IMG/VR virus record: IMGVR_UViG_3300005662_000054
Span: 1 to 54,572 of that record
Direction: 5' to 3' (one strand)
DNA length: 54,572 nucleotides
DNA from: a virus
Lineage: Duplodnaviria; Caudoviricetes
Below, in pieces: positions 1,943-54,572 of the stretch. The notes beneath the pieces were generated by a model, which was not told the origin of the DNA, did no database searches, and saw only the letters and a list, made by a program, of their open reading frames with translations. How positions within the stretch are numbered: position 1 is the first letter of the stretch; every line of letters begins with the position of its first letter. The position numbers and the translations under genes were made by a program.

Positions 1943-2848
1943 ATGGCTACATTAAAACCCCGTTCGCAAATAATTCATCCTACTGAAGGGGTAAGTTTAA
2001 GGGCACAATTCTATGATCTTGCTGGAGATCCAGTTGATCTAGTATCTGTTCCTCAAGTATCTATTATTCAGCCCAGTGGTAACGTAGTAATTGGACCTAC
2101 TTCAATGGGTGTTTACCGTGTAGACACTGGATTGTATGGATTTGATTATACAACACAATTACAAGTTAATCAGGGTGTTTGGGTAGATCTTTGGAGAGGA
2201 CAGATACCTTCAGGTCAAACTGTAGTTAAAGAATTTAATTTTACTGTATTTTATACTCAAACCCCATTAACAAATAGTGATGGATATTGGGCATTGGGAG
2301 ATGATGTACCATTTAATTACTCTCAAACTGCCATATTAAATATTAATAAATTGTTAAAAGGATTAAAAGCTAGATTAAAGTCCAGTGGTAAATCAGCTGG
2401 AGTAGACCAGTTTAACAATCCAATTTATGTTGATTGTGATATTTATAGCACAGATCAATTAGTGACATTCTTGGCTCAAGCATTAAGTATGTTTAATGAA
2501 ATTCCTCATTTTACAGCATTTGAATTTCATCATACGGAAATTGTAACAATATTTTATAATGTATTAGTTCAGGGAGCGACACTATTAGCTTTGTCTAGCC
2601 AGGCTTTGATTGAAAGAGGAAGAGAATATAGCTTGAGCGATAACGGCGTTAGCTTGACCCCTCCAACAGTTAGCGAACTGCTTAATACGCAATGGAGTAC
2701 AGAATTGAGCAATCATATGGAAAGGGTCAAGATGATAAAAGTTTCGATGAAACCGTCTCCGCAAGCGCTTGGCACATTGACAGGAAGCGTTGCCCGCGCT
2801 CCTCAATTCGCTCGTCTCCGTTGGCTCAGAGCCCGTCAAATCTACTGA
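1943..2848 (+). CDS. Putative neck / head-tail adaptor protein with N-terminal Ig-like beta-sandwich
   Basis: Beta-rich N-terminal domain (LRAQFYD..G.PVD...VSIIQPSG...TGLYGFDYT...GVWVDLW), helical C-terminal half, first gene of the structural block; contains one DGY. Confidence 0.5.
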   Translation: MATLKPRSQIIHPTEGVSLRAQFYDLAGDPVDLVSVPQVSIIQPSGNVVIGPTSMGVYRVDTGLYGFDYTTQLQVNQGVWVDLWRGQIPSGQTVVKEFNFTVFYTQTPLTNSDGYWALGDDVPFNYSQTAILNINKLLKGLKARLKSSGKSAGVDQFNNPIYVDCDIYSTDQLVTFLAQALSMFNEIPHFTAFEFHHTEIVTIFYNVLVQGATLLALSSQALIERGREYSLSDNGVSLTPPTVSELLNTQWSTELSNHMERVKMIKVSMKPSPQALGTLTGSVARAPQFARLRWLRARQIY

Positions 2849-2861
2849 TACAAGGAAAGAA

Positions 2862-2993
2862 ATGCGATATCAAGTCTATGCGCATATTAATAAGACTACA
2901 GGAAAAGTTTATATAGGAATAACTAGCAAAGACATGATGAAAAGATGGTACCGTCATGTAATAGAATCCGGCAAAAACAATCCTAAAAATTAA
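2862..2993 (+). pseudogene. Truncated GIY-YIG homing endonuclease remnant (43 aa)
   Basis: MRYQVYAHINKTTGKVYIGITSKDMMKRWYRH carries the GIY-YIG N-terminal motifs and the conserved Arg, then stops before the catalytic Glu region; AAGGA upstream. Confidence 0.75.
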
Positions 2994-3062
2994 TATTACT
3001 TTAATTGTATAATTAAAAAGTATAAAAAGACACTAAGTTAAAACAATTATTTCAGGCTCCAT

Positions 3063-3863: not shown

Positions 3864-3898
3864 TAGTAAAACATAAGATTAATTTGGCATAAATATGT

Positions 3899-5503
3899 AT
3901 GGCATGTGAACCTCCTGTACCTACATATTTACCTGTAACCATTACTGGTCTGCAAAAAGTTTCTTGCAGTTCAGATGGTCAGTCTATTATTTTAAATTGG
4001 ACTAGGGCTTATCCAAACCCATATAATTATCAATTAGGTTACAACATATATTACTCAACTGTTAAAGAAGACGTATTTAGCGAAGGTCCAAAATATTTAG
4101 TCATAGATAATAAAACATCTATAGAATTATTAGATTTTACTCCTGGAGATAGCTATTATTTTGCTGTTCGGGCAACTCAATTCGATCCTGCGGTAGTTTC
4201 TTTATCTGGATTGCCTGATTTAGGAGTGGCTAAAATATATCCCGAATCTTTATTACTGTCACCTATGACAGAAACTGATACTTCTATGTTTGTAGAAGAT
4301 ATTAATTTATTTCCAAATTATGGAATTGTCCAGGTAGGTGTAGAACTAATTAGTTACACTAATAGAGATATTCCAAGCAGTGCTCTTACAGGTTTAAACA
4401 GAGGAATTTTAAAAACTACAGCTCGTGCTCATGATGTAGATGGATACGATGGGTATGATCAATGGGATCCATTTGTTAAATTTTTTAAAGGATTTGAAGA
4501 GAAAAATACAAAATCTTTTATGGAAACAATAAATTATGCTTATCCTAACTATCCATATAGTCAGACTGATGGTTACAAATATAGCAAAGATATTGTTTAT
4601 TCTAATTTAGATAATACTGAAATAAATGAATCTGATTTTCCAAAGTATGATTTAGTGGGATGGAGAAGAACCAATCCAAAAGATTATTTAACTGGAAAAT
4701 GTGTAGGAACTTATTTTGGTGGAGAAATTTATTGTGCAGATGGTTACGATGGAGTTGGAAGACAGCTCAGAGGAATATCTGTAACTGATGAAAACAATCG
4801 CAGAGAAGAGTTGCTATTAGAGCAAACTGGAAGAGAAGCTGTTCTTTTAAGAAGATATCATACAGGAATTCGTTGTAAATGTTTTATAGCGGAAGTGGAG
4901 CAGCCTGATGATAGGTGCCCTTCATGTTTTGGAACAGGATTTACAGTAGGATATCATCAATTTTTTAATCCAAGAAGAAGCGATGGAAGAATTTTAGTTA
5001 GAATAGATCCTACAGATGAAGATATTGCACAACAAGATGCTGGTCTAGAAAATACATTAACACCTAATGGTTGGACATTAGTTTATCCAATTATTAAAGA
5101 CAGAGATGTAATTATTCTTTATGATACTTATGAAAAAACTTTAGAAGATGCCAGATATGAAATATTATCTGTAAATAGAAATGTTTTATTTTATGGAATA
5201 AGTGGTGCTCAAAAATTTAGAGCACAAAGAATTCGCAAAACAGATTCTGTTTATAAAATTAAAGTATTTTCTGATAGCTCTATGATGCCATCTAAGTTAA
5301 CAACTAGTATTAACATGGGAGGGCAATTCTTGCCTCATTCTCATGAAGTAGTTGTTAGTGAAAAAATATTAAATATTTCTCAAATTAATCAATTGACTAG
5401 TTTGGGAGGATCGAATCCTACTCAACAGCATACGCATCAGGTAGTTAATGGAATTATTCAGCCTGCGGCTGATGGTCACGTTCACACAATTTTCTTACCT
5501 TAA
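3899..5503 (+). CDS. Putative neck/head-closure structural protein with FN3-like N-terminus, Cys4 zinc site and C-terminal HxH repeats
   Basis: FN3-like IILNWT...GYNIYYS...YYFAVRA; RCKC...CPSCFGTGF; HSH/HTH/HVH near the C-terminus; four DGY. Confidence 0.55.
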   Translation: MACEPPVPTYLPVTITGLQKVSCSSDGQSIILNWTRAYPNPYNYQLGYNIYYSTVKEDVFSEGPKYLVIDNKTSIELLDFTPGDSYYFAVRATQFDPAVVSLSGLPDLGVAKIYPESLLLSPMTETDTSMFVEDINLFPNYGIVQVGVELISYTNRDIPSSALTGLNRGILKTTARAHDVDGYDGYDQWDPFVKFFKGFEEKNTKSFMETINYAYPNYPYSQTDGYKYSKDIVYSNLDNTEINESDFPKYDLVGWRRTNPKDYLTGKCVGTYFGGEIYCADGYDGVGRQLRGISVTDENNRREELLLEQTGREAVLLRRYHTGIRCKCFIAEVEQPDDRCPSCFGTGFTVGYHQFFNPRRSDGRILVRIDPTDEDIAQQDAGLENTLTPNGWTLVYPIIKDRDVIILYDTYEKTLEDARYEILSVNRNVLFYGISGAQKFRAQRIRKTDSVYKIKVFSDSSMMPSKLTTSINMGGQFLPHSHEVVVSEKILNISQINQLTSLGGSNPTQQHTHQVVNGIIQPAADGHVHTIFLP

Positions 5504-5513
5504 AAAATCGTCA

Positions 5514-5838: not shown

Positions 5839-8800
5839 ATGACAAAATTCGTAGGATCAAGCAGAGTAAGAGAAGGTGGTCGTCCTGTAACTCACTATCA
5901 GGATTTTATTTCCCATGTAGGCGGGGCTGACTGGCGACATGAAGCTGATCAAATTGATATGAATCCGCCAGTTCCAACTTTAGTTGGAACAACTGTTCAA
6001 GCTGCTTTTGAAAATTTATACACTTTCGTTTTATCAACAGGTACCGGATATGTATCTATTGGCTATCAATTACCAAGTTCTGATGGTTATATTCAAGGAA
6101 CTTACAGTGTAGGATCTACTGCCACCCCTACGTTTGAAGATGCTATGACTGCAGCTTTTGCAGATTCACGTTTACAAAATGGCGGTACAATCTTTATATT
6201 ACCTGGATATTATAGAGTTTCTTCTACAATAGAGGTTCCTGCTGGGATTTCTTTGATGGGAGATCCTTCCGGAACTTATATAGTTGGTCAAACCTCTGGT
6301 GGTAGTCCAGTATTTAAATTTAATGCTTCTAATTCAATATTTAGTATTAATGGAGACTCTGGTAGCGGAGACCAAGAAGTACTAAGGGGAACAGGGGTTA
6401 AGCAATCTACGGTTGAAAAATTAATAATAACTGATAATTCCGATGGTTATGTTAATAGCGGAGACTCTACATTAAGCGGCACTTTAAATTCTTTGGTTTT
6501 TTTACAAAGGGGTGCTAATGTATTATTTACAAAAACTTCATTTATTGGCAGATTAAATGACGGAGCAGTTTTAAATAGATTAAAAACTTCTTCTGCAATT
6601 TATTGTTCATCAACTGGCGGTTCTAAAGGAACTGCTTTAAGAGTTGAGGGTTGTTATTTTGATGGAGTTAAGCAAGCTGTAAATTTCAAATCTAATCTTG
6701 GTAATCAAGATTATGTTTCAATTAAAAATTCAAAAATTAGATTCTATGGAGCAGAAGGTGCTTCATATGATAGCGTTACAGGCTATGATTCTGTTTTAAA
6801 TACTTCTTTGGCAAATATTGAATTTGAAAATAATTATATTGCAGGAGCTGGGGGGTACGCAAAAACTTTAGTTTATGTAGATTCTACATCGGTAACATCT
6901 ACGAATTGTACTTTAAAAATTGTAAATAACTCTGGATATTCGGTAAATAACTTGACCGAGCTATGTGATTATAATAATTCTAGTTCTATTCATTCAGTAA
7001 TGTCTGGAAATACCTGGTCGCCTGGGAGATATGGGAATAATTCTTGGACAGTAGTGATTGGCGAGCAAGAGGGTGATATTATTGGAACCGGGGCATTAGA
7101 TTTATTATTATCTACGTATGTTGCTGCAAATGCTTTAAATCCAACAACCGTTATATTGAATCCTGGAACTTATACGCTCAGTGTTGCTAGTGGCAGTTTT
7201 TATGGTATAAAATTAAAAGGAAATCCAATAGGCAAATATTATCCTATTGTTGTTTCTAATCTTTCTGCTGGAACAACAAATCATTTAGGAAATAGGTACG
7301 TTGTTTTTGGAAATCAAATAGAGAATATTTATTTTAAATATTCTTCAAATATAAATTCTATTCATGCAAGTTCTGCTAGAGGGCTAGCTACTGAAGATGC
7401 TGCTGAGAGCATAACGGTAAATAATTGTCAATTTATAAATACAAATTTATATATAGATGTATCTTCATCTGATACGGCAACTAATTTAACTGGTTCCCAA
7501 GAAGGTACTCCAACGAGTATACAAGTCACAGTTTCCAATTGTAGATTTTATCATACTACTGGTGGGAAAAATTGGGGCTTATATTTACCAAACATAAATA
7601 ATGTTAAGTTAAATAAATGTTATTTTCATGGTTCTAGTTATGCTTTAATTTATGGTCCTTCAGTTTTATCAACTGGGACAAAATATTCTCATTTTGATAT
7701 GGAAAGTTGTATATTTGATCTTTCCGCAGAAACAATAGATAGCGATCCAACATATGGATCTCCATATTATTTAGATATTCAAAGCGAAAATACCACTTTT
7801 AATATGAGCAAATGTTCGTTCATATCTTCTGATTTTGGAGATTCAGCAAATGCAGTATTTAGCGGCGTAGCAACGGCAAATAGATTTATTAATATTAGTG
7901 TAAAAAATGCAAATATTAATGAGTGCTATTTTAATACCCCTAATTATACATATACATCTCCGGGAAATTATCCAATGGCAGGATTATATTTGCAATGGGA
8001 TGAGAATTTAAATGTATCAAATAGTACATTTAAATGTGGAGGTGTTCCATTAAAAGTTATTAGGAATTCTTCCGGAACCCAAAACTCTTGCAATATAACA
8101 AATAATTATTTTCAAAATTTTGCCTCCGGAGTAACTCAAACTTTATTAGATTTAGAATGTGATTTTGGATTAACTTATGCTCCTGTAATTAATTTAAAAT
8201 CTAATTATTTTAATAATAAAACGACCGCTTCTAGTAGATATGTCCAACATACGGATGTAACTAGTACTGCATATGATACGGGTGCAGTTGTTCAAATCTA
8301 TGCTAGGGGGGCATTAGTTAATGCTTCTGATAATTCTTTTTACGGAGCGATTCACGAGCCTACGAGCAATCCATTCACATTCTTGTCTGCAATGTATTTT
8401 AATACATGTAATTCAGATTCTGGAGCTACAACTCACTTAAACCATGTTAATTTATTAGGAAATAATATTAATGTAATTGGTGCAACGGCAGTGCCTTCTG
8501 GAGGAACGTTGACTGTAAGTTCTTCTGCTCATGTTCAATCTACTTATATGAATATAAAAGATAATTATTTAAATTATAACAATGTTGGTGGGGTGCCAAC
8601 TGGTAATCTATCTAATCTTTTCTTACAAGCTTATAATATAAATTCAGCAGGAGATGCACTTGTATCGGGGAACACTTTTGACAGAATAAGTATGACCGGA
8701 TCTTTAACCGACGTTACTGAATTTATTTATGTATACACTGGCGGGTACCGAGGCAAGATAATTAATAATAATTTCAATGATTCAACGGTAGACGGATCTA

Positions 8801-9375
8801 GTACTGCTTTAATTACTGATAATAGTACTGGCGCCAATCAATGGACATATACAAATAATAAAAATCAAATTCAAACGATTAGAGTTCTGGGCGGATATGG
8901 TCAATTAGGTATTAAGAGTACTGGATCTACTTATTATAGCGTGGCTGGTCTTGTTAATGGTGTCACTACATTTGATTCAGATTTAGTATTTAGAAATTCT
9001 CAATCAGGAATCAATGTTGTTTTAAATTACAGAGATAATAGTGACGATCTTACTGCGTTATGGACAATTCCTCTTAAGACGGTTGTTCCTGAGGGGGCTT
9101 CTATCATTGAAATCAATGTTGATGTTGATGTTAGTCCAAGCCCCAATACAACATCTATTGCAACTTTAGCTTTAATAAACAGTGGTTCTTCACTCACTGA
9201 TTCAATTAATCCATTAACTACAAGTGGCGGAACTTTAACTGTAACGGCTGGGTATAATGATTTTGTTGTTCAAGGCTCAGATCCTTCTTATATTGAAGTT
9301 TCTTTGCGAATTGAAGATTCCTTTAGTAATATTGCTGGGTACATTAATTATATTGAAATTAAATACGTATTTTAA
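5839..9375 (+). CDS. Tailspike / tail fibre with right-handed beta-helix (pectin-lyase-like) domains
   Basis: GGTIFILPGYYRVSSTIEVPAGISLMG beta-helix cap, a second cap TVILNPGTY, Asn/Cys ladder repeats (V.NC.F) and an N-terminal H.A..I...TVQAA motif. Confidence 0.75.
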   Translation: MTKFVGSSRVREGGRPVTHYQDFISHVGGADWRHEADQIDMNPPVPTLVGTTVQAAFENLYTFVLSTGTGYVSIGYQLPSSDGYIQGTYSVGSTATPTFEDAMTAAFADSRLQNGGTIFILPGYYRVSSTIEVPAGISLMGDPSGTYIVGQTSGGSPVFKFNASNSIFSINGDSGSGDQEVLRGTGVKQSTVEKLIITDNSDGYVNSGDSTLSGTLNSLVFLQRGANVLFTKTSFIGRLNDGAVLNRLKTSSAIYCSSTGGSKGTALRVEGCYFDGVKQAVNFKSNLGNQDYVSIKNSKIRFYGAEGASYDSVTGYDSVLNTSLANIEFENNYIAGAGGYAKTLVYVDSTSVTSTNCTLKIVNNSGYSVNNLTELCDYNNSSSIHSVMSGNTWSPGRYGNNSWTVVIGEQEGDIIGTGALDLLLSTYVAANALNPTTVILNPGTYTLSVASGSFYGIKLKGNPIGKYYPIVVSNLSAGTTNHLGNRYVVFGNQIENIYFKYSSNINSIHASSARGLATEDAAESITVNNCQFINTNLYIDVSSSDTATNLTGSQEGTPTSIQVTVSNCRFYHTTGGKNWGLYLPNINNVKLNKCYFHGSSYALIYGPSVLSTGTKYSHFDMESCIFDLSAETIDSDPTYGSPYYLDIQSENTTFNMSKCSFISSDFGDSANAVFSGVATANRFINISVKNANINECYFNTPNYTYTSPGNYPMAGLYLQWDENLNVSNSTFKCGGVPLKVIRNSSGTQNSCNITNNYFQNFASGVTQTLLDLECDFGLTYAPVINLKSNYFNNKTTASSRYVQHTDVTSTAYDTGAVVQIYARGALVNASDNSFYGAIHEPTSNPFTFLSAMYFNTCNSDSGATTHLNHVNLLGNNINVIGATAVPSGGTLTVSSSAHVQSTYMNIKDNYLNYNNVGGVPTGNLSNLFLQAYNINSAGDALVSGNTFDRISMTGSLTDVTEFIYVYTGGYRGKIINNNFNDSTVDGSSTALITDNSTGANQWTYTNNKNQIQTIRVLGGYGQLGIKSTGSTYYSVAGLVNGVTTFDSDLVFRNSQSGINVVLNYRDNSDDLTALWTIPLKTVVPEGASIIEINVDVDVSPSPNTTSIATLALINSGSSLTDSINPLTTSGGTLTVTAGYNDFVVQGSDPSYIEVSLRIEDSFSNIAGYINYIEIKYVF

Positions 9376-9933: not shown

Positions 9934-12900
9934 ATGAGCGTTTATCCATTTGATTTAGATGATGATACTACACTTCCCCGTGTAGATGATAATATTACAG
10001 AAACAGGTCAGGAAGCAATTAATGCTTTGCGTGATGCTGTTTTTAACGTTCAAGAAGCTTTAGGCGTAGAACCTCAGGGCTCAGTAACTACTGTAGCCAA
10101 TAGATTAGATGCCGCATTAAATGCTGACGGCACAATCAAAGCAAGTGCGCTGGCTTCAATAGGTCTTGTCACTCTTCCAATTACTAATAATCAAGTTGGA
10201 TCAAATGCAGGGATAGAAGAGAGCAAATTGTCTCTTGTTCATTCTACTACTGATTTATATACTTTAATTTCAGCAAATTCTGCTTTATTAAATTCTTTAA
10301 ATTCATTTGTTAATGCCACTATTTATCCTGATTTAAATTTACACATTTCTGGGTCTACATACTTATCGGATGGGTCTTCTTCTGCTCGTCACGTTCTTAG
10401 TCATATTGATTTGAATGCGGTTCCATCCGATTTGAGAGATCCATTTTTTACATGGTCTGGATTAAAAGATAAAGATGGAAATTTAAGACCTGCTGCTAAT
10501 GCCGCTCAAGGATTATTATCAATAAATGATGCATTGGTGGATCATGAAACTCTTGCATCTGCTCATTTAGCTAGTGCAATAGATGTTAATACTGATAATT
10601 TTATTGAAATTCCTTTGACAGCAACTACTGTTCAATCTGCTCTTGATTATCTTGACAGTGCAGAAGTATTAAACATGGGCAAGCACAGAGCCACTCAGCA
10701 CGCCAATGCAATTTCTAAAATTGCAAGATCTGAATCTTTATTGATGGATGGATATGGAGATGCAGTCGTTCCTCCAACTTCATGTCATACATATTTAGCT
10801 TATCCTTTAGATTCTTTTCCTGTAGATGATTTATTTTCTGGCGATGATGTAATTAGATTTTATCCATCCAACTCAAATTATGAGTTTGACGCTGCATTTT
10901 CTCAAGTTAAGCAAGGCGATATAATTAGAATAAATTATTCTAATGGCTTAGAAGCAGTTCATATTGTTGAATCCACTAGATTTATTCCTGGATCTGAATG
11001 GTTTGTTAGAATTAACGGTGTTAATCTATGCACCTCTACAGACGGATATGCGGCAGCCAGAATTGATAGACCTTTATACGATGTAAATACTGCTGGCATA
11101 TTTGCCACAGCCTCTGCTAATGCAAGGAATTCTTTAGGACCAACCGCAACTTCTACATTACCAAGTTTGGTTGTTGCAGATCCTAGAGGAGCAATGGCTC
11201 TTGGGTTAAATTTTGATCCTGGACAATTAAATTCTACACATTATAATTTATACTTACAGTTATATCCAACAGGAAATCCTGCAGATAAAGTAATTAATTT
11301 ACCAGCAATTGATGTAACTGGAAATGCTGGAGCCACGCCTGGGGCATATACAATTAATTCTGTAATTTCTGCCACGAATGATAAATTAAGACAATTTGGG
11401 TATAATTATAGATTTATTGCTTTTGAATATAATGGCGAATTTGGAATAATGCTTGCGGATTCTATTAATAACGCATCATTTTCAATTATAAGTGGAACAA
11501 ATTCTGGAGGAACATTATCCGGATTGCCATACACAAATAATGTTATTGGTGGTGGAACTTCTGTTCCTGATTCTTTTGATGCGCTGGGTCTAGGAGTTGT
11601 TGGAGCTAATTTGGCATCTCCAGCTTATATGGCTTCTTGGACAAGTTCTTTAGAAGCTATATTGCCAACAAAAGTTATTAGACCATTAAAGAAGAGATAT
11701 GCTATTGTTAATGGTTTGAAAGTTGATAAATTTGAATCAATGTATCTAACCACTGATGGGTACTGGGACGGATATGTTTCTTCCAGAAATCAGTTTGGTA
11801 CTACCGTAGAAACCACATATACAGTTTTAACAAATCTTTCTCCTTCTGGTATTAAGCCAGGAAAGACCATTGTTGTACAACCGGCTGTTGATTATACGGA
11901 TTCTTTATATAACGATGTTGACTATGGTAGATTTATTATTAAATCCGTTAATTTTGTTGGAGCATGTGGCACATCTCCGTCTTTGACTCAAATTACTGTA
12001 TTAAATTCTATTCATGCTTATGGTTCTGCTGTTACAAGTTCAGGAGATTCTCCTCTTCCTGTAAAATTATATTTTTCTTATGATTCAGTTGGATTTAATA
12101 GTCAAAATTTAATTGATCCTGCAATATATCCAACTGATTACAAGAGATTATATGAAGTTTATTTAACTGAAACTGGAAGAACTTTCTCACATGAACGTGC
12201 TAGAATGCCTATACAGGCAGGTTCGGGCGATTTGGTTAATACCTCTAATGTTCATATTATTGATGTTTCTCCAAAGTTAAGAGGCTATACTGATGGAGTA
12301 TTAGGTCAATTTAATAAATTTGTTAGACTTTATATATTAAATTATGACTCTGTGACTGGAGAATATGATGGATATTTGGGTCAAAGGTCTTCATCAACTC
12401 CTAACATTTTTAAAACTGGTCAAATCGTTACTGGTAAAAAAAATGTCGTTACAAGATTCTATGATGAAACAAATATTGATTATATAGATTTCATATTTGT
12501 TGATACTGCTAGCCCTGGAACTTCAATCGGACCCGTTCCTGGATATGTAGACATAGAATTATTTGGCGGATTAAAAACTGATGATGAATTGTTTTTACTG
12601 GCTACTTGTGAAGTAAATTGGGACCCTGTTTCCGGAGAAAATATTATTCAATATGTTTCTGACGGAAGACAGTTTGGTTCTGTAGATGAAACTGATTTTA
12701 CAGAATTAGCAAAAGAATATATTTCTGCTGCTGATAAATACCTCCATGATAGCGGTGTAATTAGAGGTCTAGCCTATGAATCATTTGCCTCAAATGGGGA
12801 GTTAAAATTTAAAGGCGGTCTTGCAATTGTTAATGGCAAAGTAGTGCCAGCCAATAACCAGTCAGTGACTATTCCGCAAATCCGCCCAAGCAGTACTCCT

Positions 12901-19144: not shown

Positions 19145-19163
19145 TATTTAAATTAAATATGAA

Positions 19164-19203
19164 AAATAACCTTGGAATATTTTTCCAGGGTTATTTGTTT
19201 TTT
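19164..19203 (+). terminator. Rho-independent terminator after the sheath-tube genes
   Basis: AAATAACCTTGGAA-tattt-TTCCAGGGTTATTT stem (one G.U pair) followed by a T-run. Confidence 0.75.
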
Positions 19204-19232
19204 AAGTTATAGGTAATTTTAAGGAGAAAGAT

Positions 19233-22449: not shown

Positions 22450-22457
22450 TAATAATA

Positions 22458-22472
22458 TAATTATTTAACATA
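22458..22472 (+). promoter_or_regulatory. Candidate late promoter (TAAT TATTTAA CATA)
   Basis: Matches YAAT-N7-YATA; ATG 5 nt downstream with no SD. Confidence 0.5.
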
Positions 22473-22477
22473 ATATT

Positions 22478-23320: not shown

Positions 23321-23321
23321 T

Positions 23322-34199: not shown

Positions 34200-34203
34200 G
34201 AAT

Positions 34204-34641: not shown

Positions 34642-34720
34642 TGATATATTTTTGCATATCTTTGCATAATGCGCTATAAAAATAGCATTTTGGTGCTATA
34701 TTATTTTAAGGTGGAAATAA

Positions 34721-47590: not shown

Positions 47591-48685
47591 ATGCGAGTCA
47601 AGGTACAAGGATTTTTATTTGGCAAGTCTCATAGCTGGGCTTATGTTAATCAAAATTTAGGAAGATCTCTTCTTAATCAGGGTCACGAAGTAGAATTTAT
47701 TTCTACAGATGGAAATAAACCTGAACATACCCCTGAAGATTTAAAGCCATTTATAAAATTAAGACCATCTGGTGAATATGATATGCAAGTATCATATACT
47801 GCCATGATTAATTTTCAAAATTATTTATCTTATGGTTCTAAAAATCGTTTTGGAATATGGTGTTATGAATTTCCAATTATTCCAAAAGAATTTATTAAAT
47901 ATTATAAATTTGTAGATAAAATTTTAGCCCCAAGCCAGTTTGCTAAAGATATTTTTGTTAATAATAAAATTCCAGAAGAATGTGTTTCGGTAGTTCCACA
48001 TGGAATTAATTTAGAGCATTTTGCTTATAAGCAAAAATATCCTTTAAAAACTAAAAAGAAATTAAAATTTTTAATTCCATTGGGACAGCCTCATATTAGA
48101 AAGGCTATCCCTGAAACAATAGAAGCTTTTTATAAGGCTTTTACTAACAAAGATGATGTGTGCTTAGTCGCAAAAGTTCCATCAGCTTCTTTGGATAAAA
48201 AAGCTCCTTTTGAAGTTGATGTAAAGAAAATAATTCATCAATTAAATCAAAAATACAAAAATCATCCAGAAATTGAGCTAATTACTACTTATGTTCCTAA
48301 TATGGTTTCTTTATTCAATGCTTGTGATGTTGTATACTCTTTAACTCATGCTGAATGTTTTTTCATGCCAGCTTTGGAAGGTTTTGCTGCTGATAAATTA
48401 GTTATTGTGCCTCGCCATGGGGGTCAGTTAGATTTTTGCAATGATGACAATAGTATTTTAATTTCTGGAAAAGAAGTGAGGGCTCCAATGGATGCTCAGT
48501 ATTGGAGCGCATCTGTGTATAATTCTTATTTTGAAGCAGACCAAGAACACGCAGTAGAATCATTGAGAAAAGTATATCAGTCATATGATTCTATTTTAGA
48601 ATCTAAAAACGAATCCATGCAAAATACTGTTAATCAATATACTTGGGACAATGCGTTAAATTTAATTTTGAAAGAAGTAAAATGA
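47591..48685 (+). CDS. Glycosyltransferase, GT4-like (GT-B fold)
   Basis: APSQFAKD...VVPHGI...RKAI...AFYKAF...ECFFMPALEGFA (E-x7-E motif). Confidence 0.85.
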   Translation: MRVKVQGFLFGKSHSWAYVNQNLGRSLLNQGHEVEFISTDGNKPEHTPEDLKPFIKLRPSGEYDMQVSYTAMINFQNYLSYGSKNRFGIWCYEFPIIPKEFIKYYKFVDKILAPSQFAKDIFVNNKIPEECVSVVPHGINLEHFAYKQKYPLKTKKKLKFLIPLGQPHIRKAIPETIEAFYKAFTNKDDVCLVAKVPSASLDKKAPFEVDVKKIIHQLNQKYKNHPEIELITTYVPNMVSLFNACDVVYSLTHAECFFMPALEGFAADKLVIVPRHGGQLDFCNDDNSILISGKEVRAPMDAQYWSASVYNSYFEADQEHAVESLRKVYQSYDSILESKNESMQNTVNQYTWDNALNLILKEVK

Positions 48686-49368
48686 ATTTAATTAGCGTTA
48701 TTATACCAGTGTATAACCAAGTGCATTTTACAAGAAAATGCATCGAAGATTTATCTCATTTACCTGAGCAGTGCCAAATTATCGTCGTAGATAATAATAG
48801 TATAGATGGTACTAGTGATTTTTTTAAATCATTAAATAAAAAAAATATTAAATATATTAAATTAGATAAAAATTTAGGTTTTGGAGCCGCCAATAATATT
48901 GGCGTAAATCATTCGGAAAGCGACAATTTATTATTTCTAAATAATGACGTAGCAGTTCTAAAAGATAAGTCTACATGGATCGATTCTTTAATTGAAAAAT
49001 GTCAGGATAGATTAATTTCTTCTCAGTCTGGATTATTAAATAGTAATTTTAATTTTGTTCGTGAAGCATCTGCTCCTCATCTTTTGCAAGACCCATTTGA
49101 ATATTTAAGTGGCTGGTCAATTATGGGATCGAGAAAATTATTTGATCAAATAGCGAAAGAAGAAGGGGTTATTTGGTCTAAAAAATATTTTGCTTATTTT
49201 GAAGACGCTCATTTAAGTTGGAAGGCGAATGAATTAAAAATTCCAATGGAAGTAGTGAAGACTCCATTGCATCATTTTGGAAGAATTACATCGAGTAAAA
49301 TGGGTCTATCTAACTTATATCAAGAATCTTATAAGATATTTTCTTCTTATTGGAAGGGAAAGAAATGA
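48682..49368 (+). CDS. Glycosyltransferase family 2
   Basis: ISVIIPVYNQ...IIVVDNNSIDGT...NLGFGAANNIG...LFLNNDV...YFED; ATGA overlap at 48682. Confidence 0.9.
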   Translation: MNLISVIIPVYNQVHFTRKCIEDLSHLPEQCQIIVVDNNSIDGTSDFFKSLNKKNIKYIKLDKNLGFGAANNIGVNHSESDNLLFLNNDVAVLKDKSTWIDSLIEKCQDRLISSQSGLLNSNFNFVREASAPHLLQDPFEYLSGWSIMGSRKLFDQIAKEEGVIWSKKYFAYFEDAHLSWKANELKIPMEVVKTPLHHFGRITSSKMGLSNLYQESYKIFSSYWKGKK

Positions 49369-50174
49369 AATTACACATTCTAACATTAACTTGGAATGGC
49401 TCTTTTCTTTTAAAGAGACTGGCTCCAGGACTTCTTAGTAATTTAAAAAATCTTGATATTGATGCCCATTGGTATGTTAGAAGCAATGGATGCAAAGATG
49501 ATTCAGTTTCTTATTTAGAATCTTTGGGCAATAAAGTTTCTATCTTAAAAAAAGACCATAACAGAGACAATTTTTCTCAAGGTGTTAATTCTTTAGCTGT
49601 TATGGCTAAAAACAGTATAGGAAATGAAGATTTATTTTTACTTTTGAACAATGATATCTTTTTTAAAGATTCAAATGCTTTAAAAGTAATTATAGATACT
49701 TATATTAAGTACAAGCCTGGAGTTGTTGGAGCAAAATTAAATTATACTAATTCTAATAAGTTACAACATGCTGGTGTAATATTTTCTTCAAAGTATGGTA
49801 ACATGCCTTGGCATTATAAAGCAAATGAAGAAGAAGACTCTGATTCTTGTAAAAATAGAGAGTTTCAGGCGGTAACGGGTGCGTGTCTTCTTACCCCTTG
49901 TAATTTATTTTTTGAAATGAATATGCTTGATGAAAAATTTAATTGGGCTTTTGAGGATATTGCATATACTTTAAAAGTTGGCAAAACAGGCAAAAAAATA
50001 ATTTATTGTGGCGGAGTAAATATAGATCATGGAGAATCAGTTTCTTTAAAAAAGAATCCTGTAAATAAATTAATGATGGGACCTAATGTTAAACATTTTA
50101 AAGAAAATTATGATTCTTTATATAAATTAGATCATGATTTATATTTAAAAAATAAGGATTATAAGTTAATATGA
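49365..50174 (+). CDS. Glycosyltransferase family 2
   Basis: ILTLTWN...NFSQGVN...LLLNNDI...VVGAKL...LQHAGV...AVTGACLL...FEDI; ATGA overlap at 49365. Confidence 0.88.
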   Translation: MKLHILTLTWNGSFLLKRLAPGLLSNLKNLDIDAHWYVRSNGCKDDSVSYLESLGNKVSILKKDHNRDNFSQGVNSLAVMAKNSIGNEDLFLLLNNDIFFKDSNALKVIIDTYIKYKPGVVGAKLNYTNSNKLQHAGVIFSSKYGNMPWHYKANEEEDSDSCKNREFQAVTGACLLTPCNLFFEMNMLDEKFNWAFEDIAYTLKVGKTGKKIIYCGGVNIDHGESVSLKKNPVNKLMMGPNVKHFKENYDSLYKLDHDLYLKNKDYKLI

Positions 50175-51148
50175 AGTCTTTATGTTTGCCATATTGCCCT
50201 GGAATACCTTGGGACATTAACGATCAAGATATGATCGTTAAAAAGTTAAAGGGAGAGTTTCGTTCTCTTACTACAAAAAATATTAATGTGGTTTGTCATG
50301 GCGGATTGTTGGAATCATTCTTTTCTACTTTTTGTATAGAATATTTTAAATTAAAATACCCCGAAAAAAATATATTTTGGCATGGCAGAGAAGAATTTAA
50401 AGAAATTATAAAATTACAAGGAGCTGCTAATTATTCTTCTGAAATTACAAAAGAAATTTCGGGATCCTATCCGATTCATTTCTTTAAAGATAAAGAAAAT
50501 AATGCATATTTTAATTTATTAGATAATTATTTTGAATATCACACCTATCTAGGTAAAAAAATTAAAAAAAATAAAAATAATTTTATTGATATTTTTAACA
50601 AAAATTTTATGTTGGATAAATTATTAAATTATCCATTTGTTCTTAGAAACCAAGATAGAGATATAGAGTTTGAGGCTTGGTGTAAATTAAATAAGTATGT
50701 AATAAATAAGCCTTATATTTTAATTTTGCCTGATAGACTTACTCATTCTTTGCACAAATTAGATTTTATTAATTTTTCTATGATGGAGCTAAGGGCGCTG
50801 TCCTCTGTTTTAGCACTGCAGGGCATTCAAACTATCATTATGTCAGATGATCCTTCAAAATATTACGGTAATTTTAAATTTATAAAATATTCTTTTACTA
50901 GATTTTTATCTTTAGCAAGAAATGCTAAAATTGTATTGTCTAGACAGCCTGATTATTCAATAATATCATTATTATTATTTAAAAATAATACTTATTCTTA
51001 CTTTTTAAGACATATGCCAAAAATTAAATTAAAACCTACTATGAGAAGAGTAAAAGGCGCAGTGGATCCTGATTGGAGGCACATAAAGCGTCAAGATGCA
51101 TTACCTTCTATCATTGAACAAATAACCAGGAAGATTTATGAACGCTAA
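50171..51148 (+). CDS. Divergent GT9 (heptosyltransferase)-like protein
   Basis: INVVCHGGLLESFFST...FKLKYPEKNIFW resembles the GT9 N-terminus (GGLGD..); KPYILILP; embedded in the GT cluster. Confidence 0.45.
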   Translation: MKSLCLPYCPGIPWDINDQDMIVKKLKGEFRSLTTKNINVVCHGGLLESFFSTFCIEYFKLKYPEKNIFWHGREEFKEIIKLQGAANYSSEITKEISGSYPIHFFKDKENNAYFNLLDNYFEYHTYLGKKIKKNKNNFIDIFNKNFMLDKLLNYPFVLRNQDRDIEFEAWCKLNKYVINKPYILILPDRLTHSLHKLDFINFSMMELRALSSVLALQGIQTIIMSDDPSKYYGNFKFIKYSFTRFLSLARNAKIVLSRQPDYSIISLLLFKNNTYSYFLRHMPKIKLKPTMRRVKGAVDPDWRHIKRQDALPSIIEQITRKIYER

Positions 51149-51917
51149 ATTATTAATGGTAACTTATAATAGATTAAATTTAACAAAAGAGACTTTAAAT
51201 AATATTTTTGAAGTTACTAAAACGCCTTTTGAATTAATTATTGTAGATAATGCTTCTCAAGATGGCACTGTTGAATATTTAAAAGAGCTTTTATCTAACA
51301 AATCTAAAGATAGTTATTATTTAGGAGCTAAGTTATTATGCAATTCTGAAAATTTAGGAATTGCTATTGGAAGAAATCAAACACTAGGTCTTGCAGGTGA
51401 CGCTTCTTGGTACGCCACATTAGATAATGATGTTTTGTTACCAGATAACTGGTTACAAAAGTGTATTAATATTATGACTCTTGAACCTCGCTATGGAATG
51501 CTTGGAGTAAATTTTGAAAACGTTAAATATCCCTTGTTAGAAGTTGGATCGTATAATGTTCAGCATAAACAACAGGGAAATTTAGGAACTGCTTGTATGG
51601 TTTTCTCCAAAAAAGTTCATAAAATGATTGGATTTTTTAATGATTTTGATTATGGCAAATATGGACTAGAAGATAGCGACTATGGATTCAGGGCAAGAGT
51701 TGCTGGATTTAAGCTAGGATATTTAGAAGATACCGGAACTCATTTAGGAGAAGATGGGGCAGATAAAAGTTCATACAGGCAGTTTAAAACAGAGGAGCAC
51801 AATAAATTTGTGCAAAAGTTTTATAACAATTGTAAATTGTATTACAGTAATCAAAAACCAATATATGTTCCATTAAATAAAGAAAAATATAAATTTAATA
51901 ATATAATATCATTTTAA
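51138..51917 (+). CDS. Glycosyltransferase family 2
   Basis: LLMVTYNRL...LIIVDNASQDGT...NLGIAIGRN...LDNDV...YGLEDSDY..R...AG. Confidence 0.9.
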   Translation: MNAKLLMVTYNRLNLTKETLNNIFEVTKTPFELIIVDNASQDGTVEYLKELLSNKSKDSYYLGAKLLCNSENLGIAIGRNQTLGLAGDASWYATLDNDVLLPDNWLQKCINIMTLEPRYGMLGVNFENVKYPLLEVGSYNVQHKQQGNLGTACMVFSKKVHKMIGFFNDFDYGKYGLEDSDYGFRARVAGFKLGYLEDTGTHLGEDGADKSSYRQFKTEEHNKFVQKFYNNCKLYYSNQKPIYVPLNKEKYKFNNIISF

Positions 51918-51920
51918 ATT

Positions 51921-54572
51921 ATGCAAGAATATTTTTTTGATAAATTAAAATCAATATGTTCATCAAGTATTGGTTGTAAATATGATGGAACTTATGTTTT
52001 AGAGCCAAAATTTGGTAAGATATCTTTTTTGATTGAAGAAGATTTTTCTTATATAGAGATACATCTAAAAAGATTGTCTGGAAATGGAAAAATAAAAATT
52101 AATGAAGAAGAACATATTGTTTTATCTAAAAATTTGCAAATAAAAGTATTACTGTGTAAAGATAAAAAAATTTATATTACAAGACCTGAAGATTCTATTG
52201 GCGAGGTGGCAATTTTAGGCATAGAAATAGATTCTGATTATGAGGAATATATGGCAAGAAATTGGAAGTCAATAGTAAGAAAATTTTCTAATTATAAAGG
52301 GCTATCTTTAGTTAAAAACGATTTATTAGCAAAGGAGGGCTCATTTATTGAGCCCAGTGCTATTATTTCCGATCTGACTACGGATCCTCCTAATGCATAT
52401 TCTATTAAAGAAAACAGAATAGTTTTTAATTATAATTGTAAAATTTTAGATATTGATGTTAGCTCTGAAGTAAAAGTTGAAAAAACAGAACTTTTTGTTA
52501 GTAGAGAGCCAGCAACTCCAATTAGAAATCCCGAGATTATAAAAGATGATATAATTAATGTTAATAATTATATTAATTTTAATCAAAATGTAAAAAGAGA
52601 TAGCATGGTAGATTTTAAGCCTTTAGTTAATATTGTTTACGATTCTGATAAGTTTAATGGTTTTGTTAAAAATAACTTTAAAGAACAAAACAGAAATATT
52701 AAATTTATTGCCAGTAATGGTAAAAATTATTTATCTATTAAACCTGGAGCTACGTTCTCAATTCCCATTTCTTCTATTGAGCCAAATAAAAAATATACCA
52801 TTATTTTTAATGGTAAAAAATTTGGTGGAAATGGAAAATTTAAAGCTTCTATTTCTAATTCTAAATCACCAGATCAATATGCTTCCCTTGTTTTTTCAAT
52901 AAACCTTGAAGACAAAAATATAAATATCTCTTCAGGTGAAGAGCCAGATTTTGGAACTTCTTACAAATTAAATATTGGTGTTTTTGAAGATGGTAATAGT
53001 GAAATTCTAGTTTCTAGAATTATTTTAGTAGAAGCATTGGACCATGTTAAAATGGATACAGTTTCTGATGTGGAAAATCTTAATTCACGTCAAGAAGTTA
53101 AATATTCTTTACCGGCACATACCTTATCTGCCAATCTTAAAGGCAAAAATAAATTTGTTATTGTTATTCCTAGTTATAAAAATCAAGAATGGGCAGAGAA
53201 AAACATTTTATCAGCTTTAGATCAAAATTATCCAGATTTCAGAGTTCTTTTTACTGACGATTGCTCTCCTGATAACACTTTTGATGTTGTGAAAAAAGCT
53301 GTAGAAAATCATCCAAATAAAAATAAAGCTGTTATTGTAAGAAACGAAGTCCGCAAAGGGGCTTTAGAAAATCTCTATAATATGATTCATTCTTGTGATG
53401 ATGATGAAATTGTATTAACATTGGACGGTGATGACTGGCTAGCAAGTCCAGAAGTATTAAATACTTTGAACATTCATTATTCTGGTGATGTGTGGATGAC
53501 TTATGGTCAATATCAAAATTATCCCGATGGTGGAAGAGGAATAGCTCAACAAATACCAGACCATGTTATTAAAAGTAAAAACTATAGAAGTTTTTCTTGG
53601 TGTTCGTCTCACTTAAGAACTTTTTACGCTTGGCTATTTAAACAAATTAAAAAAGAAGACTTCTTCTATGAAGGTAAATTTATGGCTATGACATGGGACA
53701 TGGCAATGATGTTTCCTATGTTAGAAATGTCTGGTCATCGCTCTAAATTTATTAGCGAGTATTTATACATATATAATTTAGTAAATCCAATTAACGATCA
53801 TAAAGTTAATCAAAAATTACAGCAAAAGTTAGATCGTTTAATTAGAACCATGCCCAAGTATCCAGTTTTAAATAAAGAGCCCGCTCATGTTTTAGAAAAT
53901 AGGGCTAAAAATAAAAAGAAGATAGGTTTATTAGTAATTGCAACTGGTAAATACGATCAATTTATTCCGCAATTAATTCAATCAGCTGATAAATATTATT
54001 TTCATGATTCAAAATTTGAAGTAACATATTTTATTTTTACAGATAAAGAGATTTCTTTAAATACTTCAAGAAATTATAAGTTAATTAACATAGAACATCG
54101 TGGTTTTCCATATGCTAGCATGGATAGATTTAAGCATTTTACAAATAATTCAGAAGAACTATCTAAAATGGATTATTTATATTATGTAGATGTTGACTGT
54201 AAGTTTGTAGATTATGTTTCTACTGAAACTTTGGGCGATCTGGTAGGGGTTCGTCATTGCGGTTATTTCAATGGCGGAGGTACATTTGAAGAAAATAAAA
54301 ATTCCGTATTTTATGAAGACCCTAAAAAATATAAATATTATTTTGGAGGCGGGTTTAGCGGAGGGGCGGCAGCTTCTTATTTAAATCTTTCTAAATGGTG
54401 TTATGAAATGATAGAAAGAGACTTATCAAATAATATAGTGCCGACTTGGCACGATGAAACTGCTTTAAATAGGTACTTTTTAGATCACGAACCTGAAATT
54501 GCATTAACCCCTAGTTATCACTATCCAGAGAACTATTCAAATTATGTTGCAAAATGGAGACCGTATAAATTT
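51921..54572 (+). CDS. Multidomain glycosyltransferase: unknown N-terminal region + GT2 + GT6 (ABO/alpha-1,3-Gal(NAc)T-like); 3'-truncated and absent from the ORF track
   Basis: Hand translation is open from ATG 51921 to the window end (884 codons). GT2 starts at 53151 (FVIVIPSYKN...TDDCSPD...LDGDDW). GT6 starts at about 53919 (KIGLLVIATGKY...YFIFTD...YYVDVD...YYFGGGFSGG...WHDETALNRYF...LTPSY). Confidence 0.88.
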   Translation, partial: MQEYFFDKLKSICSSSIGCKYDGTYVLEPKFGKISFLIEEDFSYIEIHLKRLSGNGKIKINEEEHIVLSKNLQIKVLLCKDKKIYITRPEDSIGEVAILGIEIDSDYEEYMARNWKSIVRKFSNYKGLSLVKNDLLAKEGSFIEPSAIISDLTTDPPNAYSIKENRIVFNYNCKILDIDVSSEVKVEKTELFVSREPATPIRNPEIIKDDIINVNNYINFNQNVKRDSMVDFKPLVNIVYDSDKFNGFVKNNFKEQNRNIKFIASNGKNYLSIKPGATFSIPISSIEPNKKYTIIFNGKKFGGNGKFKASISNSKSPDQYASLVFSINLEDKNINISSGEEPDFGTSYKLNIGVFEDGNSEILVSRIILVEALDHVKMDTVSDVENLNSRQEVKYSLPAHTLSANLKGKNKFVIVIPSYKNQEWAEKNILSALDQNYPDFRVLFTDDCSPDNTFDVVKKAVENHPNKNKAVIVRNEVRKGALENLYNMIHSCDDDEIVLTLDGDDWLASPEVLNTLNIHYSGDVWMTYGQYQNYPDGGRGIAQQIPDHVIKSKNYRSFSWCSSHLRTFYAWLFKQIKKEDFFYEGKFMAMTWDMAMMFPMLEMSGHRSKFISEYLYIYNLVNPINDHKVNQKLQQKLDRLIRTMPKYPVLNKEPAHVLENRAKNKKKIGLLVIATGKYDQFIPQLIQSADKYYFHDSKFEVTYFIFTDKEISLNTSRNYKLINIEHRGFPYASMDRFKHFTNNSEELSKMDYLYYVDVDCKFVDYVSTETLGDLVGVRHCGYFNGGGTFEENKNSVFYEDPKKYKYYFGGGFSGGAAASYLNLSKWCYEMIERDLSNNIVPTWHDETALNRYFLDHEPEIALTPSYHYPENYSNYVAKWRPYKF

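Follow-up and report, generated by a model that had tools for sequence, protein, structure and literature searches.

What does the tripeptide Asp-Gly-Tyr (DGY) do on the virion proteins of this phage? The window, by which we mean the whole stretch of 54,572 nucleotides analyzed here, carries a run of virion genes with a cluster of glycosyltransferase genes directly behind it, and the first-pass annotation had proposed that DGY may be an acceptor sequon for these transferases or a docking site for a decoration protein. The part of that proposal that held up is that DGY appears to be a selected tag on outer virion proteins, as indicated by its enrichment and its confinement to the virion module, whereas the link to the transferases has stayed conjectural.

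DGY counts in the window

The motif occurs in frame 33 times in the window, compared with 3.29 occurrences expected from composition (the earlier rough estimate was about 4). Within-protein shuffles (n = 2000) yielded a mean of 3.33 copies (sd 1.81) and a maximum of 11, which argues against chance, and the first-order expectation (DG x GY / G) is 7.6-9.3. Among all tripeptides of the window, DGY is over-represented most (Poisson p = 5e-22); the runner-up, SLV, reaches 2.6e-6. Tyr follows 33 of the 108 DG dipeptides, and Asp precedes 33 of the 83 GY dipeptides. DGF is present at its expected level, with 4 copies, matching the earlier figure. Permuted orders are rare (GDY 0, DYG 4, YGD 4, GYD 8, YDG 8), and so are substituted versions (NGY 1, EGY 1, DGW 0, DAY 0). 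The enrichment thus persists against both shuffles and DG-x controls, and it is stronger than the first-pass annotation had stated. That annotation had also placed the 33 copies in nine ORFs, some of them in doubled forms, and none elsewhere: each per-ORF count was reproduced exactly, the doubled forms are present, and the other 22 of the 31 plus-strand ORFs contain no DGY.

The corresponding DNA pattern, GAYGGNTAY, has 33 copies on the plus strand, every one in the coding frame, with none in the two non-coding frames of that strand and a single copy on the minus strand. Because the pattern is limited to the coding frame, the DGY signal lies at the protein level; codon usage within DGY is close to background, which likewise argues against a signal in the DNA itself.

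Proteins with and without DGY

All nine carriers are encoded on the plus strand. The first (positions 1943..2848, 301 aa) is a head-tail-connector-like virion protein by weak similarity (PHROG connector match, E = 2e-4); its one DGY, at residue 113, is kept in the relative G001. A fibre-like protein of 534 aa (3899..5503) has four copies (residues 181, 184, 224, and 281); it has an fn3 domain at its N terminus, a CxC...CxxC block, and, towards the C terminus, three HxH motifs, which are of metal type and invariant in the family. When 80 members of this family are aligned, the four sites read DGY in 75, 54, 78, and 78 sequences, and a fifth site, at residue 26, does so in 65 of 80, the window having DGQ there; these five sites are nearly invariant across about 50% identity. 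Two proteins of no known family follow. The one at 5839..9375 (1178 aa) has two DGY (residues 82 and 202), both kept in G001, whose ortholog is 30% identical overall, and the one at 9934..15153 (1739 aa) has five (residues 272, 370, 608, 612, and 812). Full-length members of the latter's ortholog family (n = 36) hold 2-9 DGY apiece, distributed over 45 distinct columns, just 5 of which are common to at least 25% of members. Directly 5' of the sheath gene, a 263-aa protein (15193..15984) has one copy at residue 122, in a column that reads DGY in 35 of 42 orthologs. The tail sheath itself (16058..18487, 809 aa, Pfam Phage_sheath_1C) carries three, at residues 175, 182, and 199, distant from its conserved C-terminal domain (residues 718-806); these columns contain DGY in 26 of 37 aligned sheaths, and 15 distinct DGY columns were found in the 52 sheaths compared.

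The remaining carriers lie further downstream. The 678-aa protein that the first-pass annotation called a spike (28306..30342) has no family match, and its single DGY (residue 443) is not kept in G001. A baseplate or fibre protein of 2223 aa with a Laminin_G_3 domain (37954..44625) has eight copies, all within residues 1064-1207, including a tandem array at 41503..41580 with 6 copies per 26 residues (1184-1209). At the position of this array, relatives have 7 copies (G005), 4 (G017), or 2 (G001), and DGY in the 31 orthologs falls mostly at residues about 1000-1700, with nearly none in residues 1-700. The distal fibre protein (44648..47569, 973 aa) also has eight, all within residues 583-904; its dockerin type I domain spans residues 585-653. 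Its 64 orthologs have a median of 5 DGY per protein (range, 0-12), and residues 1-500 show at most 0.1 DGY per 100-aa bin.

Several virion proteins lack the motif. Six plus-strand ORFs between the sheath gene and ORF 28306 (18527..28289) serve as a DGY-free contrast set: the ORF that follows the sheath gene, two small ORFs, an ORF of 721 aa, ORF 22478, and a 1655-aa ORF. The first of these is the putative tube, assigned from its position alone, and no DGY was found in the 47 sequences of its family. The families of the two small ORFs (35-37 sequences), the family of the 721-aa ORF 20284 (45 sequences), and that of the tube-initiator-like ORF 22478 (37 sequences; Pfam match at E = 1e-3) also have none, and the family of the 1655-aa ORF 23322 has one copy in 42 sequences. 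The sheath-initiator (gp25-like) and baseplate J proteins (34153..37951, plus strand) have no DGY in the window; their orthologs have one copy in G001 and two in G035. The major capsid protein of G001 has none, and neither do the six ORFs at 47591-54572. DGY is restricted to outer proteins of the virion and, within fibres, to their distal halves.

Distribution and turnover in related phages

Around the sheath genes of 56 relatives we counted 373 DGY, compared with 48.7 expected, and 55 of the 56 loci were enriched. Within 10 kb upstream of the GT4 glycosyltransferase gene, where the fibre genes lie, 80 loci contain 873 DGY versus 52.8 expected, and enrichment is at least 3-fold in 69 of the 71 GT4-anchored loci longer than 2000 aa. 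Locus L056 has no DGY in 5970 aa. Overall, the over-representation on outer tail and fibre proteins, in the window and in relatives, is ten- to sixteen-fold. In G003 (110 copies versus 13.7 expected) and in G035 (32 versus 4.6), no other tripeptide is as over-represented as DGY; in G035, the last two fibres are DGY-poor and the other virion proteins are DGY-rich. In the complete 458-kb genome of G001, the virion module at 240-380 kb has 72 copies versus about 9.3 expected, and the remainder of the genome, about 100,000 aa of non-virion protein, has 11 versus about 13.1. This module excess and the bin counts of the fibres, which place DGY in the virion module and, in fibres, in the distal parts, favour the earlier idea of an exposure-linked tag. 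Downstream of GT4 there are 25 DGY versus 35.8 expected; there is no clear avoidance of the motif in non-virion proteins. Unrelated phages are near baseline (T4-like phages 1.5x in 21 loci, phiKZ 1-2.2x, LE2-3 1.3x). DGY enrichment is a property of a large clade of uncultivated huge myophages, with genomes that reach 472 kb.

Comparison of the window with G001 shows that 23 of the 33 window DGY are common to both, at 30-62% protein identity, and that each side has 10 private sites. New sites frequently fall in gappy insertion columns, and arrays of 2-7 tandem copies vary in copy number at one position among orthologs. Orthologs share many sites, and raw counts from relatives are not independent, as an explanation by a few inherited ancestral sites would have it. 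However, when distinct alignment columns are counted instead, DGY, with 76, still ranks first of 4101 tripeptides, at 1.87 sites per expected occurrence (tripeptide median, 0.60; 99th percentile, 1.09). The excess also persists in relatives at a GC content of 28-56%, which argues against composition. Together with the shuffles and the coding-frame pattern, these two results refute chance, composition, DNA-level signal, and inheritance as the source of the excess, and we give this group of explanations a negligible probability. Judging from the alignments, DGY sites are under purifying selection together with turnover and have been gained repeatedly.

Residue requirement and structural context

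In alignment cells where Asp and Gly are kept and Tyr is lost, Phe is found in 3% of 64 cells, compared with 43% at 320 control Tyr columns. Because Phe so rarely replaces this Tyr, the hydroxyl group appears to matter. Many sites alternate with DGV, DGE, or DGQ among orthologs. The usual alternative turn, NGY, stands at 0.84x in the families. Across the 76 distinct sites there is neither a flank consensus nor an enrichment of Asp at -2 or -4, and the loop-likeness of the flanks by composition is 0.44, compared with 0.45 around other Tyr residues. Two known Tyr- or Asp-containing elements were considered and rejected. The DxDxDG or EF-hand-like calcium loop of dockerin and FG-GAP repeats, raised earlier as a possible explanation, fits only 2-3 sites in the dockerin of ORF 44648 and is not matched at most DGY sites. 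The tyrosine corner of Greek-key domains has Gly two residues before Tyr, typically as L-x-P-G-x-Y; it was ruled out, as the Gly of DGY immediately precedes Tyr and no Pro/Leu pattern lies upstream.

A more general structural role has some support. DGY might be a lineage-specific structural element with neither reader nor ligand, in which an Asp-Gly turn and a hydrogen bond from the Tyr hydroxyl stabilize beta-rich outer domains for extracellular survival. The near-invariance of several sites in the 3899 family would agree with this, as would a family site located at the A-B turn of the fn3 domain, the mild excess of 1.3-2.2x in unrelated phages, and the conservation of the DG turn while the third residue varies. 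The D-x-x-G-x-P hairpin is common in Ig-like and prealbumin-like domains, and the pattern D-x-x-G-x-P-[IV] fits sheath residues 175-190 and 199-206 as well as ORF 15193. The other DGY sites do not fit it, and the sheath has no Pfam match of Ig type. The replacement of Tyr by Val, Glu, or Gln in many orthologs implies a fold that does not need Tyr, a turn-forming role is hard to reconcile with the lack of NGY enrichment, and arrays varying from 2 to 7 copies, like new sites in gappy columns, fit a fold poorly. Nor do the non-virion proteins of G001 show any excess, and the same goes for the families of the putative tube, the tube initiator, and the inner tail proteins. We regard a purely structural role as unlikely.

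A non-enzymatic microsite is possible, though it too is rather improbable. Here, an exposed Asp carboxylate and the Tyr hydroxyl or ring, flanking Gly, would bind an extracellular sugar or a hard metal ion, with avidity arising from many copies; the sugar could belong to host capsule, slime, or biofilm, and the whole particle would adhere weakly and multivalently. Such a role would account for the presence of DGY only on virion proteins and distal fibre parts, the failure of Phe to stand in for Tyr, the variable copy number of arrays, and the maintenance of density while sites turn over. Some carriers also have lectin-type (Laminin_G_3), fn3, or dockerin domains, and the 3899 family has its invariant metal-type HxH motifs. 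On the other hand, binding sites normally need more than three contiguous residues, and no flank consensus extends this one; the missing acidic enrichment at -2/-4 is not that of a DxDxDG-type calcium site. A microsite would also leave the constant GT4-led neighboring island unexplained, although it does not require an explanation of it.

Taken together, these observations suggest that selection maintains DGY as a short linear motif, complete in itself, on parts of the virion that probably face outward: the insertion region of the sheath, the proteins of neck and fibres, and the baseplate fibres in their distal halves. The pattern points to, but does not prove, a novel type of site at which virions are tagged or glycosylated.

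The glycosyltransferase island as candidate reader

The cluster noted earlier at 47591-54572 is confirmed by Pfam as GT4, GT2, GT2, and GT2+GT6. The candidate writer, a GT4-type (GT-B) glycosyltransferase (47591..48685, plus strand; Pfam Glyco_transf_4 and Glycos_transf_1), scores only as a generic group-1 transferase. The variable part of the sugar island lies downstream of it (48643..54572, plus strand) and contains a GT2 starting at 48643, a second GT2 at 51138, and, at 51921, a GT2+GT6 protein of at least 884 aa that is open at the window end and has an N-domain of no known family, all identified by Pfam on the plus strand. Also in the island are an ORF of 274 aa that weakly resembles GalU and a 325-aa ORF of no known family. 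In G001, it additionally encodes GDP-mannose 4,6-dehydratase, epimerases, a formyltransferase, a methyltransferase, and a KDO8P-synthase-like enzyme.

In all five genomes compared (G001, G003, G004, G005, and G017), the gene immediately behind the 44648 homolog is GT4, conserved at 35-80% identity, and a fibre homolog lies upstream in 77 of 80 GT4-anchored viral loci. Homologs of the variable part are absent in G003 and partly absent in G017. Except for G017, which retains the GT4 gene, every record covering the region has GT2 matches 30-45 kb downstream of its sheath. No relative was found with DGY and without the GT4 gene, or the reverse. As no such relative was found, the co-occurrence of the two is uninformative; it may reflect synteny within one clade, and the sugar island could have a different function, such as modifying the host envelope or DNA.

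Our best reading is that DGY is a Tyr-directed modification sequon read by a phage-made enzyme that modifies the motif; we hold it tentatively and give it appreciable, though less than even, weight. As a sequon would, the short motif occurs on nine ORFs that are unrelated to each other. The most probable case would be O-glycosylation of the Tyr hydroxyl begun by the conserved GT4, after which the GT2/GT6 transferases of the variable part, together with sugar-nucleotide enzymes, would lengthen the glycan, leaving a glycan coat over the particle. Three points of this reading are inferred: the solvent exposure of the sites, the action of GT4 on protein, and the role of Tyr as acceptor. The full version, a first Tyr-directed glycosylation sequon in which a conserved soluble GT4 would start the glycan, in the cytoplasm, on the Tyr of exposed Asp-Gly-Tyr turns and strain-variable transferases would extend it into a sugar coat on sheath and fibres, is somewhat more doubtful than the sequon reading as such. 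A factor outside the island might read DGY instead, either a decoration or assembly protein that docks there or an enzyme for another modification (sulfation, phosphorylation, nucleotidylation, or cross-linking). The evidence for a bare motif that depends on Tyr and is linked to exposure fits such a reader equally, and the virion module has many conserved proteins of no known family as well as a NifS-like enzyme; however, no candidate enzyme or partner was identified, no kinase or sulfotransferase came to light, and we consider this quite unlikely. If the glycosylation reading is true, the sheath and fibres of huge phages would bear a sugar coat that varies, and the density of DGY would flag those dark-matter proteins that face the particle exterior.

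Comparison with known systems

A search of the literature on DGY together with phage or with glycosylation returned nothing relevant. Known bacterial glycosylation sequons include N-X-S/T, the Campylobacter D/E-X-N-X-S/T, and the Bacteroidetes D-(S/T)-(A/I/L/V/M/T); their acceptors are Asn, Ser, or Thr, and transfer takes place outside the cytoplasm from lipid-linked donors. DGY shares with them the form of a linear motif of 3-5 residues in which an acidic residue stands two positions ahead of the acceptor and which is not restricted to one carrier. It differs in its putative Tyr acceptor, in cytoplasmic assembly, and in a candidate enzyme that is a soluble GT4; we know of no GT4 enzyme that glycosylates Tyr. 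The S-layer proteins of Paenibacillus and Thermoanaerobacter are Tyr-O-glycosylated, with a membrane oligosaccharyltransferase transferring the glycan en bloc. They are proof that a bacterial glycan can sit on a Tyr hydroxyl, and to our knowledge no DGY sequon has been described for them. Giant viruses decorate their particles by means of large islands of transferases and sugar-nucleotide enzymes; these, however, are eukaryotic viruses with other acceptor sites. The glycan machinery that giant viruses encode is the subject of a review (PMC9614988).

Virion glycosylation by phage enzymes has a precedent in mycobacteriophages, where phage-encoded transferases are described as glycosylating the C-termini of capsid and tail-tube subunits (Freeman et al. 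2023, cited in PMC12619734). As far as that account goes, the likeness consists of phage-encoded glycosyltransferases (GT4, GT2, and GT6 here) and a proposed coat on exposed subunits. The carriers differ: here the G001 capsid and the putative tube (47 sequences) have no DGY, which is found on sheath and fibres, and the modification is putative. We know of no tripeptide sequon or Tyr acceptor in mycobacteriophage glycosylation. Among uncultivated phages, the "Moraphages" are a large aquatic lineage with genomes of 200-307 kb and four core glycosyltransferase groups, and their authors name virion glycosylation as one possible role (PMC12619734). The abstract and some passages of that paper mention no motif. 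On the description given there, the "Moraphages" resemble the present phages in being huge and uncultivated and in having a core genome that includes glycosyltransferases, and they differ in genome size, 200-307 kb compared with up to 472 kb among the relatives studied here.

DGY is strongly over-represented in the window

The first-pass annotation had counted the Asp-Gly-Tyr tripeptide (DGY) by hand in each ORF and had estimated that composition alone would give about 4. Translation of 31 plus-strand ORFs, named here by their start positions, reproduced every one of its per-ORF counts, with a total of 33 against a computed expectation of 3.29; its figure of about 4 for DGF was also correct (4). 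Across 2,000 within-protein shuffles the mean was 3.33 and the maximum 11. No other tripeptide of the window comes near DGY in over-representation (p = 5e-22; SLV, the second, 2.6e-6). An effect of composition or of the constituent dipeptides is ruled out, because DG and GY that are not part of DGY occur close to their expected counts, and the first-order (Markov) expectation derived from DG and GY counts is 7.6-9.3. The identity and the order of all three residues matter: GDY and DGW do not occur in the window, NGY and EGY occur once each, DYG, YGD and DGF four times each, and GYD and YDG eight times each.

The corresponding nucleotide pattern, GAYGGNTAY, is found 33 times on the plus strand, in the coding frame every time, and once on the minus strand, and codons within DGY match background usage; thus, the signal lies at the amino-acid level. 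A DNA-level cause, such as a methylation site or another site, is ruled out by the restriction to the coding frame and by the variety of codons. Of the 33 tyrosine codons within DGY, 10 are TAC (30%, against 14% at other tyrosines), a small shift.

DGY is concentrated in a subset of virion proteins

Genes of the window, all on the plus strand, were assigned using Pfam, which identified a tail sheath (16058) and baseplate J (34721) and gave weak matches to a tube-initiator-like protein (22478) and a sheath initiator (34153). The majority of DGY carriers have no family match. The domains that were recognized are Laminin_G_3 within ORF 37954 and dockerin type I within ORF 44648 (44648-47569, residues 585-653), both ORFs encoding large distal baseplate or fibre proteins, and fn3 within ORF 3899. 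PDB sequence searches with the carriers matched fn3 and dockerin only, and the search with the sheath gave no match. The dockerin domain has two EF-hand-like loops.

Ortholog families were built from 56 sheath loci. Those of the putative tube (18527, assigned by position; 47 sequences), 20284 (45) and 22478 (37) are free of DGY, and that of 23322 has a single DGY in 42 sequences. The families that bear DGY are those of the sheath (122 occurrences, 52 sequences), of 9934 (140 occurrences, 36 sequences) and of 15193, where 35 of 42 sequences share a single DGY column. The 64 orthologs of ORF 44648 have DGY at residues 500-973 and no more than 0.1 per 100-residue bin ahead of that stretch, and the 31 orthologs of ORF 37954 have it at approximately residues 1000-1700. 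Given how contractile tails are usually built, the DGY-bearing locations would face outward. The major capsid protein of the complete relative G001 (PHROG major head protein, E = 1e-78) has no DGY, and small proteins encoded near its gene do carry it.

Several other features of this module deserve mention. Positions 1-606 encode the C-terminal end of an Aminotran_5 protein, a cysteine desulfurase of NifS/IscS type; the gene occupies the same place inside the virion module in G001 and three further relatives (G004, G005 and G017). Conservation of ORF 3063-3863 is limited to its first ~160 residues, and this N-terminal module also heads proteins of 884 (G004) and 1,104 (G017) residues, as though fibres could be swapped on a common anchor. 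The ORF 3899 product (3899-5503) contains, at residues ~320-534, a CxC...CxxC block that is invariant in its family (C326, C328, C340 and C343) and three invariant HxH pairs (H480/H482, H511/H513 and H527/H529), which resemble the metal-binding HxH repeats of trimeric phage needle and fibre tips.

Enrichment extends across the clade

The sheath protein search identified 56 viral contigs, some in records of 240-460 kb. The 10-kb flanks of the sheath genes, taken on both sides, contain 373 DGY where 48.7 are expected, and 55 of the 56 loci, with GC contents from 28% to 56%, are enriched. In G001 (458,729 bp), DGY outranks every other tripeptide of the genome (83 against 22.3 expected), and the excess falls wholly within the virion module (240-380 kb; 72 against ~9.3); the remainder of the genome has 11 against ~13.1. 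Counts in other relatives are similarly elevated: 110 against 13.7 in G003 (GC 56%), 56 against 13.5 in G005, 63 against 15.5 in G004, and 32 against 4.6 in G035. Homologs number more than 705 for one carrier, and the clade comprises at least 130 viral contigs, which come from freshwater, soil and sediment. Other tripeptides are also strongly over-represented in the whole records of G004 (GPA, HRE and EWW; L117-L133) and G005 (GGG and PQG; L101-L116), which suggests repeat or collagen-like proteins.

The single relative without any DGY is a 19.5-kb contig (L056; 5,970 residues) in which DG dipeptides are few. It encodes homologs of 9934, 15193 and the sheath and ends short of the sugar-island region; a search for longer relatives matched only the contig itself.

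DGY is not a general trait of phage structural proteins. T4-like sheath neighbourhoods (n = 21) have 32 against 21.6 expected (1.5-fold), a phiKZ-like locus 1 against 1, phiKZ at 20-70 kb is 2.2-fold enriched, and Eggerthella phage LE2-3 1.3-fold. T4 long fibres have no DGY; T4 at 75-125 kb reaches 3.6-fold, with 3 of 10 sites in Seg homing-endonuclease paralogs.

Sites turn over while density is kept

DGY is also present in the G001 orthologs (30-62% identity) at 23 of the 33 window sites, often as conserved islands amid poorly conserved flanks; 10 sites are private to the window and 10 to G001. In order to remove shared ancestry, we counted distinct alignment columns rather than occurrences. 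By this measure DGY, with 76 columns, ranks first of 4,101 tripeptides, at 1.87 columns per expected occurrence (median, 0.60; 99th percentile, 1.09). Full-length members of the 9934 family have 2-9 DGY each, spread over 45 columns. Together, these counts exclude ancestral inheritance of a few sites as the sole cause: DGY density is kept while positions shift. Such a shift is seen in G035, where the last two fibres have only 2 DGY in 3,679 residues, the 9934-like protein has 8 and the 3899-like protein 7. Its loci L195 and L196 had been candidates for a DGY-poor lineage with the neighbouring glycosyltransferase, a candidacy dismissed by the sevenfold enrichment of the whole record.

The ORF 3899 family (80 members) has five sites with DGY in 54-78 sequences each, and sporadic DGY in 14 more columns. 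Several of the former are as invariant as structural residues, and some DGY sites fit a hairpin or lie in the dockerin domain; both observations count against an enzyme-read acceptor site. A lineage-specific stabilising turn, which such conserved sites would suit, is an alternative that we consider rather unlikely. DGY flanks are neither more hydrophilic nor more loop-like than those of other tyrosines.

DGY is a bare, tyrosine-specific tripeptide

The 76 distinct sites show no consensus at any flanking position and no enrichment of Asp at -2 or -4. DGY is therefore a bare tripeptide and neither a loop of the DxDxDG kind nor part of a domain common to its carriers. A calcium loop is thereby excluded for most sites, and so is a mobile domain carrying DGY, since the flanks lack similarity. 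Where Asp and Gly are kept and Tyr is lost, Val, Glu or Gln stands in its place, and Phe hardly ever does: it accounts for 3% of 64 such cells, against 43% at 320 other tyrosine columns of the same alignments. The 64 cells count sequences, not events, and two columns dominate them. DGY occurs in tandem arrays as well, with copy numbers that vary among orthologs: the array at residue 1184 of ORF 37954 has 6 copies in the window, 7 in G005, 4 in G017 and 2 in G001, and a stretch of 22 residues in the G003 homolog of ORF 3899 contains five DGY. The motif might also serve as a non-enzymatic binding microsite, which we regard as possible but doubtful.

A conserved glycosyltransferase adjoins the last fibre gene

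The glycosyltransferase cluster proposed earlier at 47591-54572 is borne out by Pfam, with a GT4-type transferase (47591), two GT2 transferases (48643 and 51138) and a GT2+GT6 transferase (51921). Of this cluster, only the GT4-type gene is kept in each of the five relatives examined (35-80% identity), where it always directly follows the ORF 44648 homolog; GT2 and other island genes are variable, or missing in G003 and G017. A search with the GT4 alignment yielded 80 viral loci, in 77 of which a fibre homolog precedes the GT4 gene. DGY number 873 against 52.8 expected in the 10 kb upstream of GT4, and 25 against 35.8 in the 10 kb downstream. A constant first transferase followed by variable ones would be the pattern expected for constant initiation with a variable glycan.

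In G001, the island (317-345 kb, L073-L074) also encodes a further transferase, formyltransferase, methyltransferase, DHDPS-like and KDO8P-synthase-like enzymes, GDP-mannose 4,6-dehydratase and two epimerases. It is followed by a TubZ-like tubulin and then helicases.

Interpretation and comparison with known systems

These analyses exclude chance, composition, a cause at the DNA level and simple inheritance as explanations, and they establish DGY as a selected, tyrosine-specific, context-free motif of the outer virion, as placed by tail architecture. An enzyme-read acceptor site best fits bare tripeptides that recur on unrelated carriers, their tandem arrays, positions that shift at a steady density and a transferase as the constant neighbour, and we tentatively favour putative tyrosine glycosylation by the adjoining island. 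On the other hand, GT4 is generic by every annotation. Every record covering the region 30-45 kb downstream of the sheath has GT2 matches there except G017, which retains the GT4 gene; none of 34 records proved to be a relative lacking glycosyltransferases that could serve as a natural control. Non-virion proteins show no clear avoidance of DGY. All three points count against the favoured reading. A further alternative, that DGY is read by something else or receives another modification, seems improbable to us.

Whatever the mechanism, one tripeptide is the strongest sequence signal of genomes of 300-460 kb and yet appears limited to the outside of the particle. Its density is a practical marker of virion proteins and domains that are probably surface-exposed, useful among the many unannotated genes of a very widespread, uncultivated clade whose host may belong to the Bacteroidota. 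If DGY is a modification site, it would be a new sequon with a new acceptor chemistry for viral glycosylation, and would explain why large sugar islands are kept beside fibre genes.

A full-text literature search found no paper on a DGY motif in phage, and nothing relevant on DGY with tyrosine and glycosylation. Virion glycosylation itself has reportedly been described in mycobacteriophages by Freeman et al. In another set of large aquatic phages, the "moraphages" (2025; PMC12619734), the authors describe four core glycosyltransferase groups and raise virion glycosylation as a possibility.
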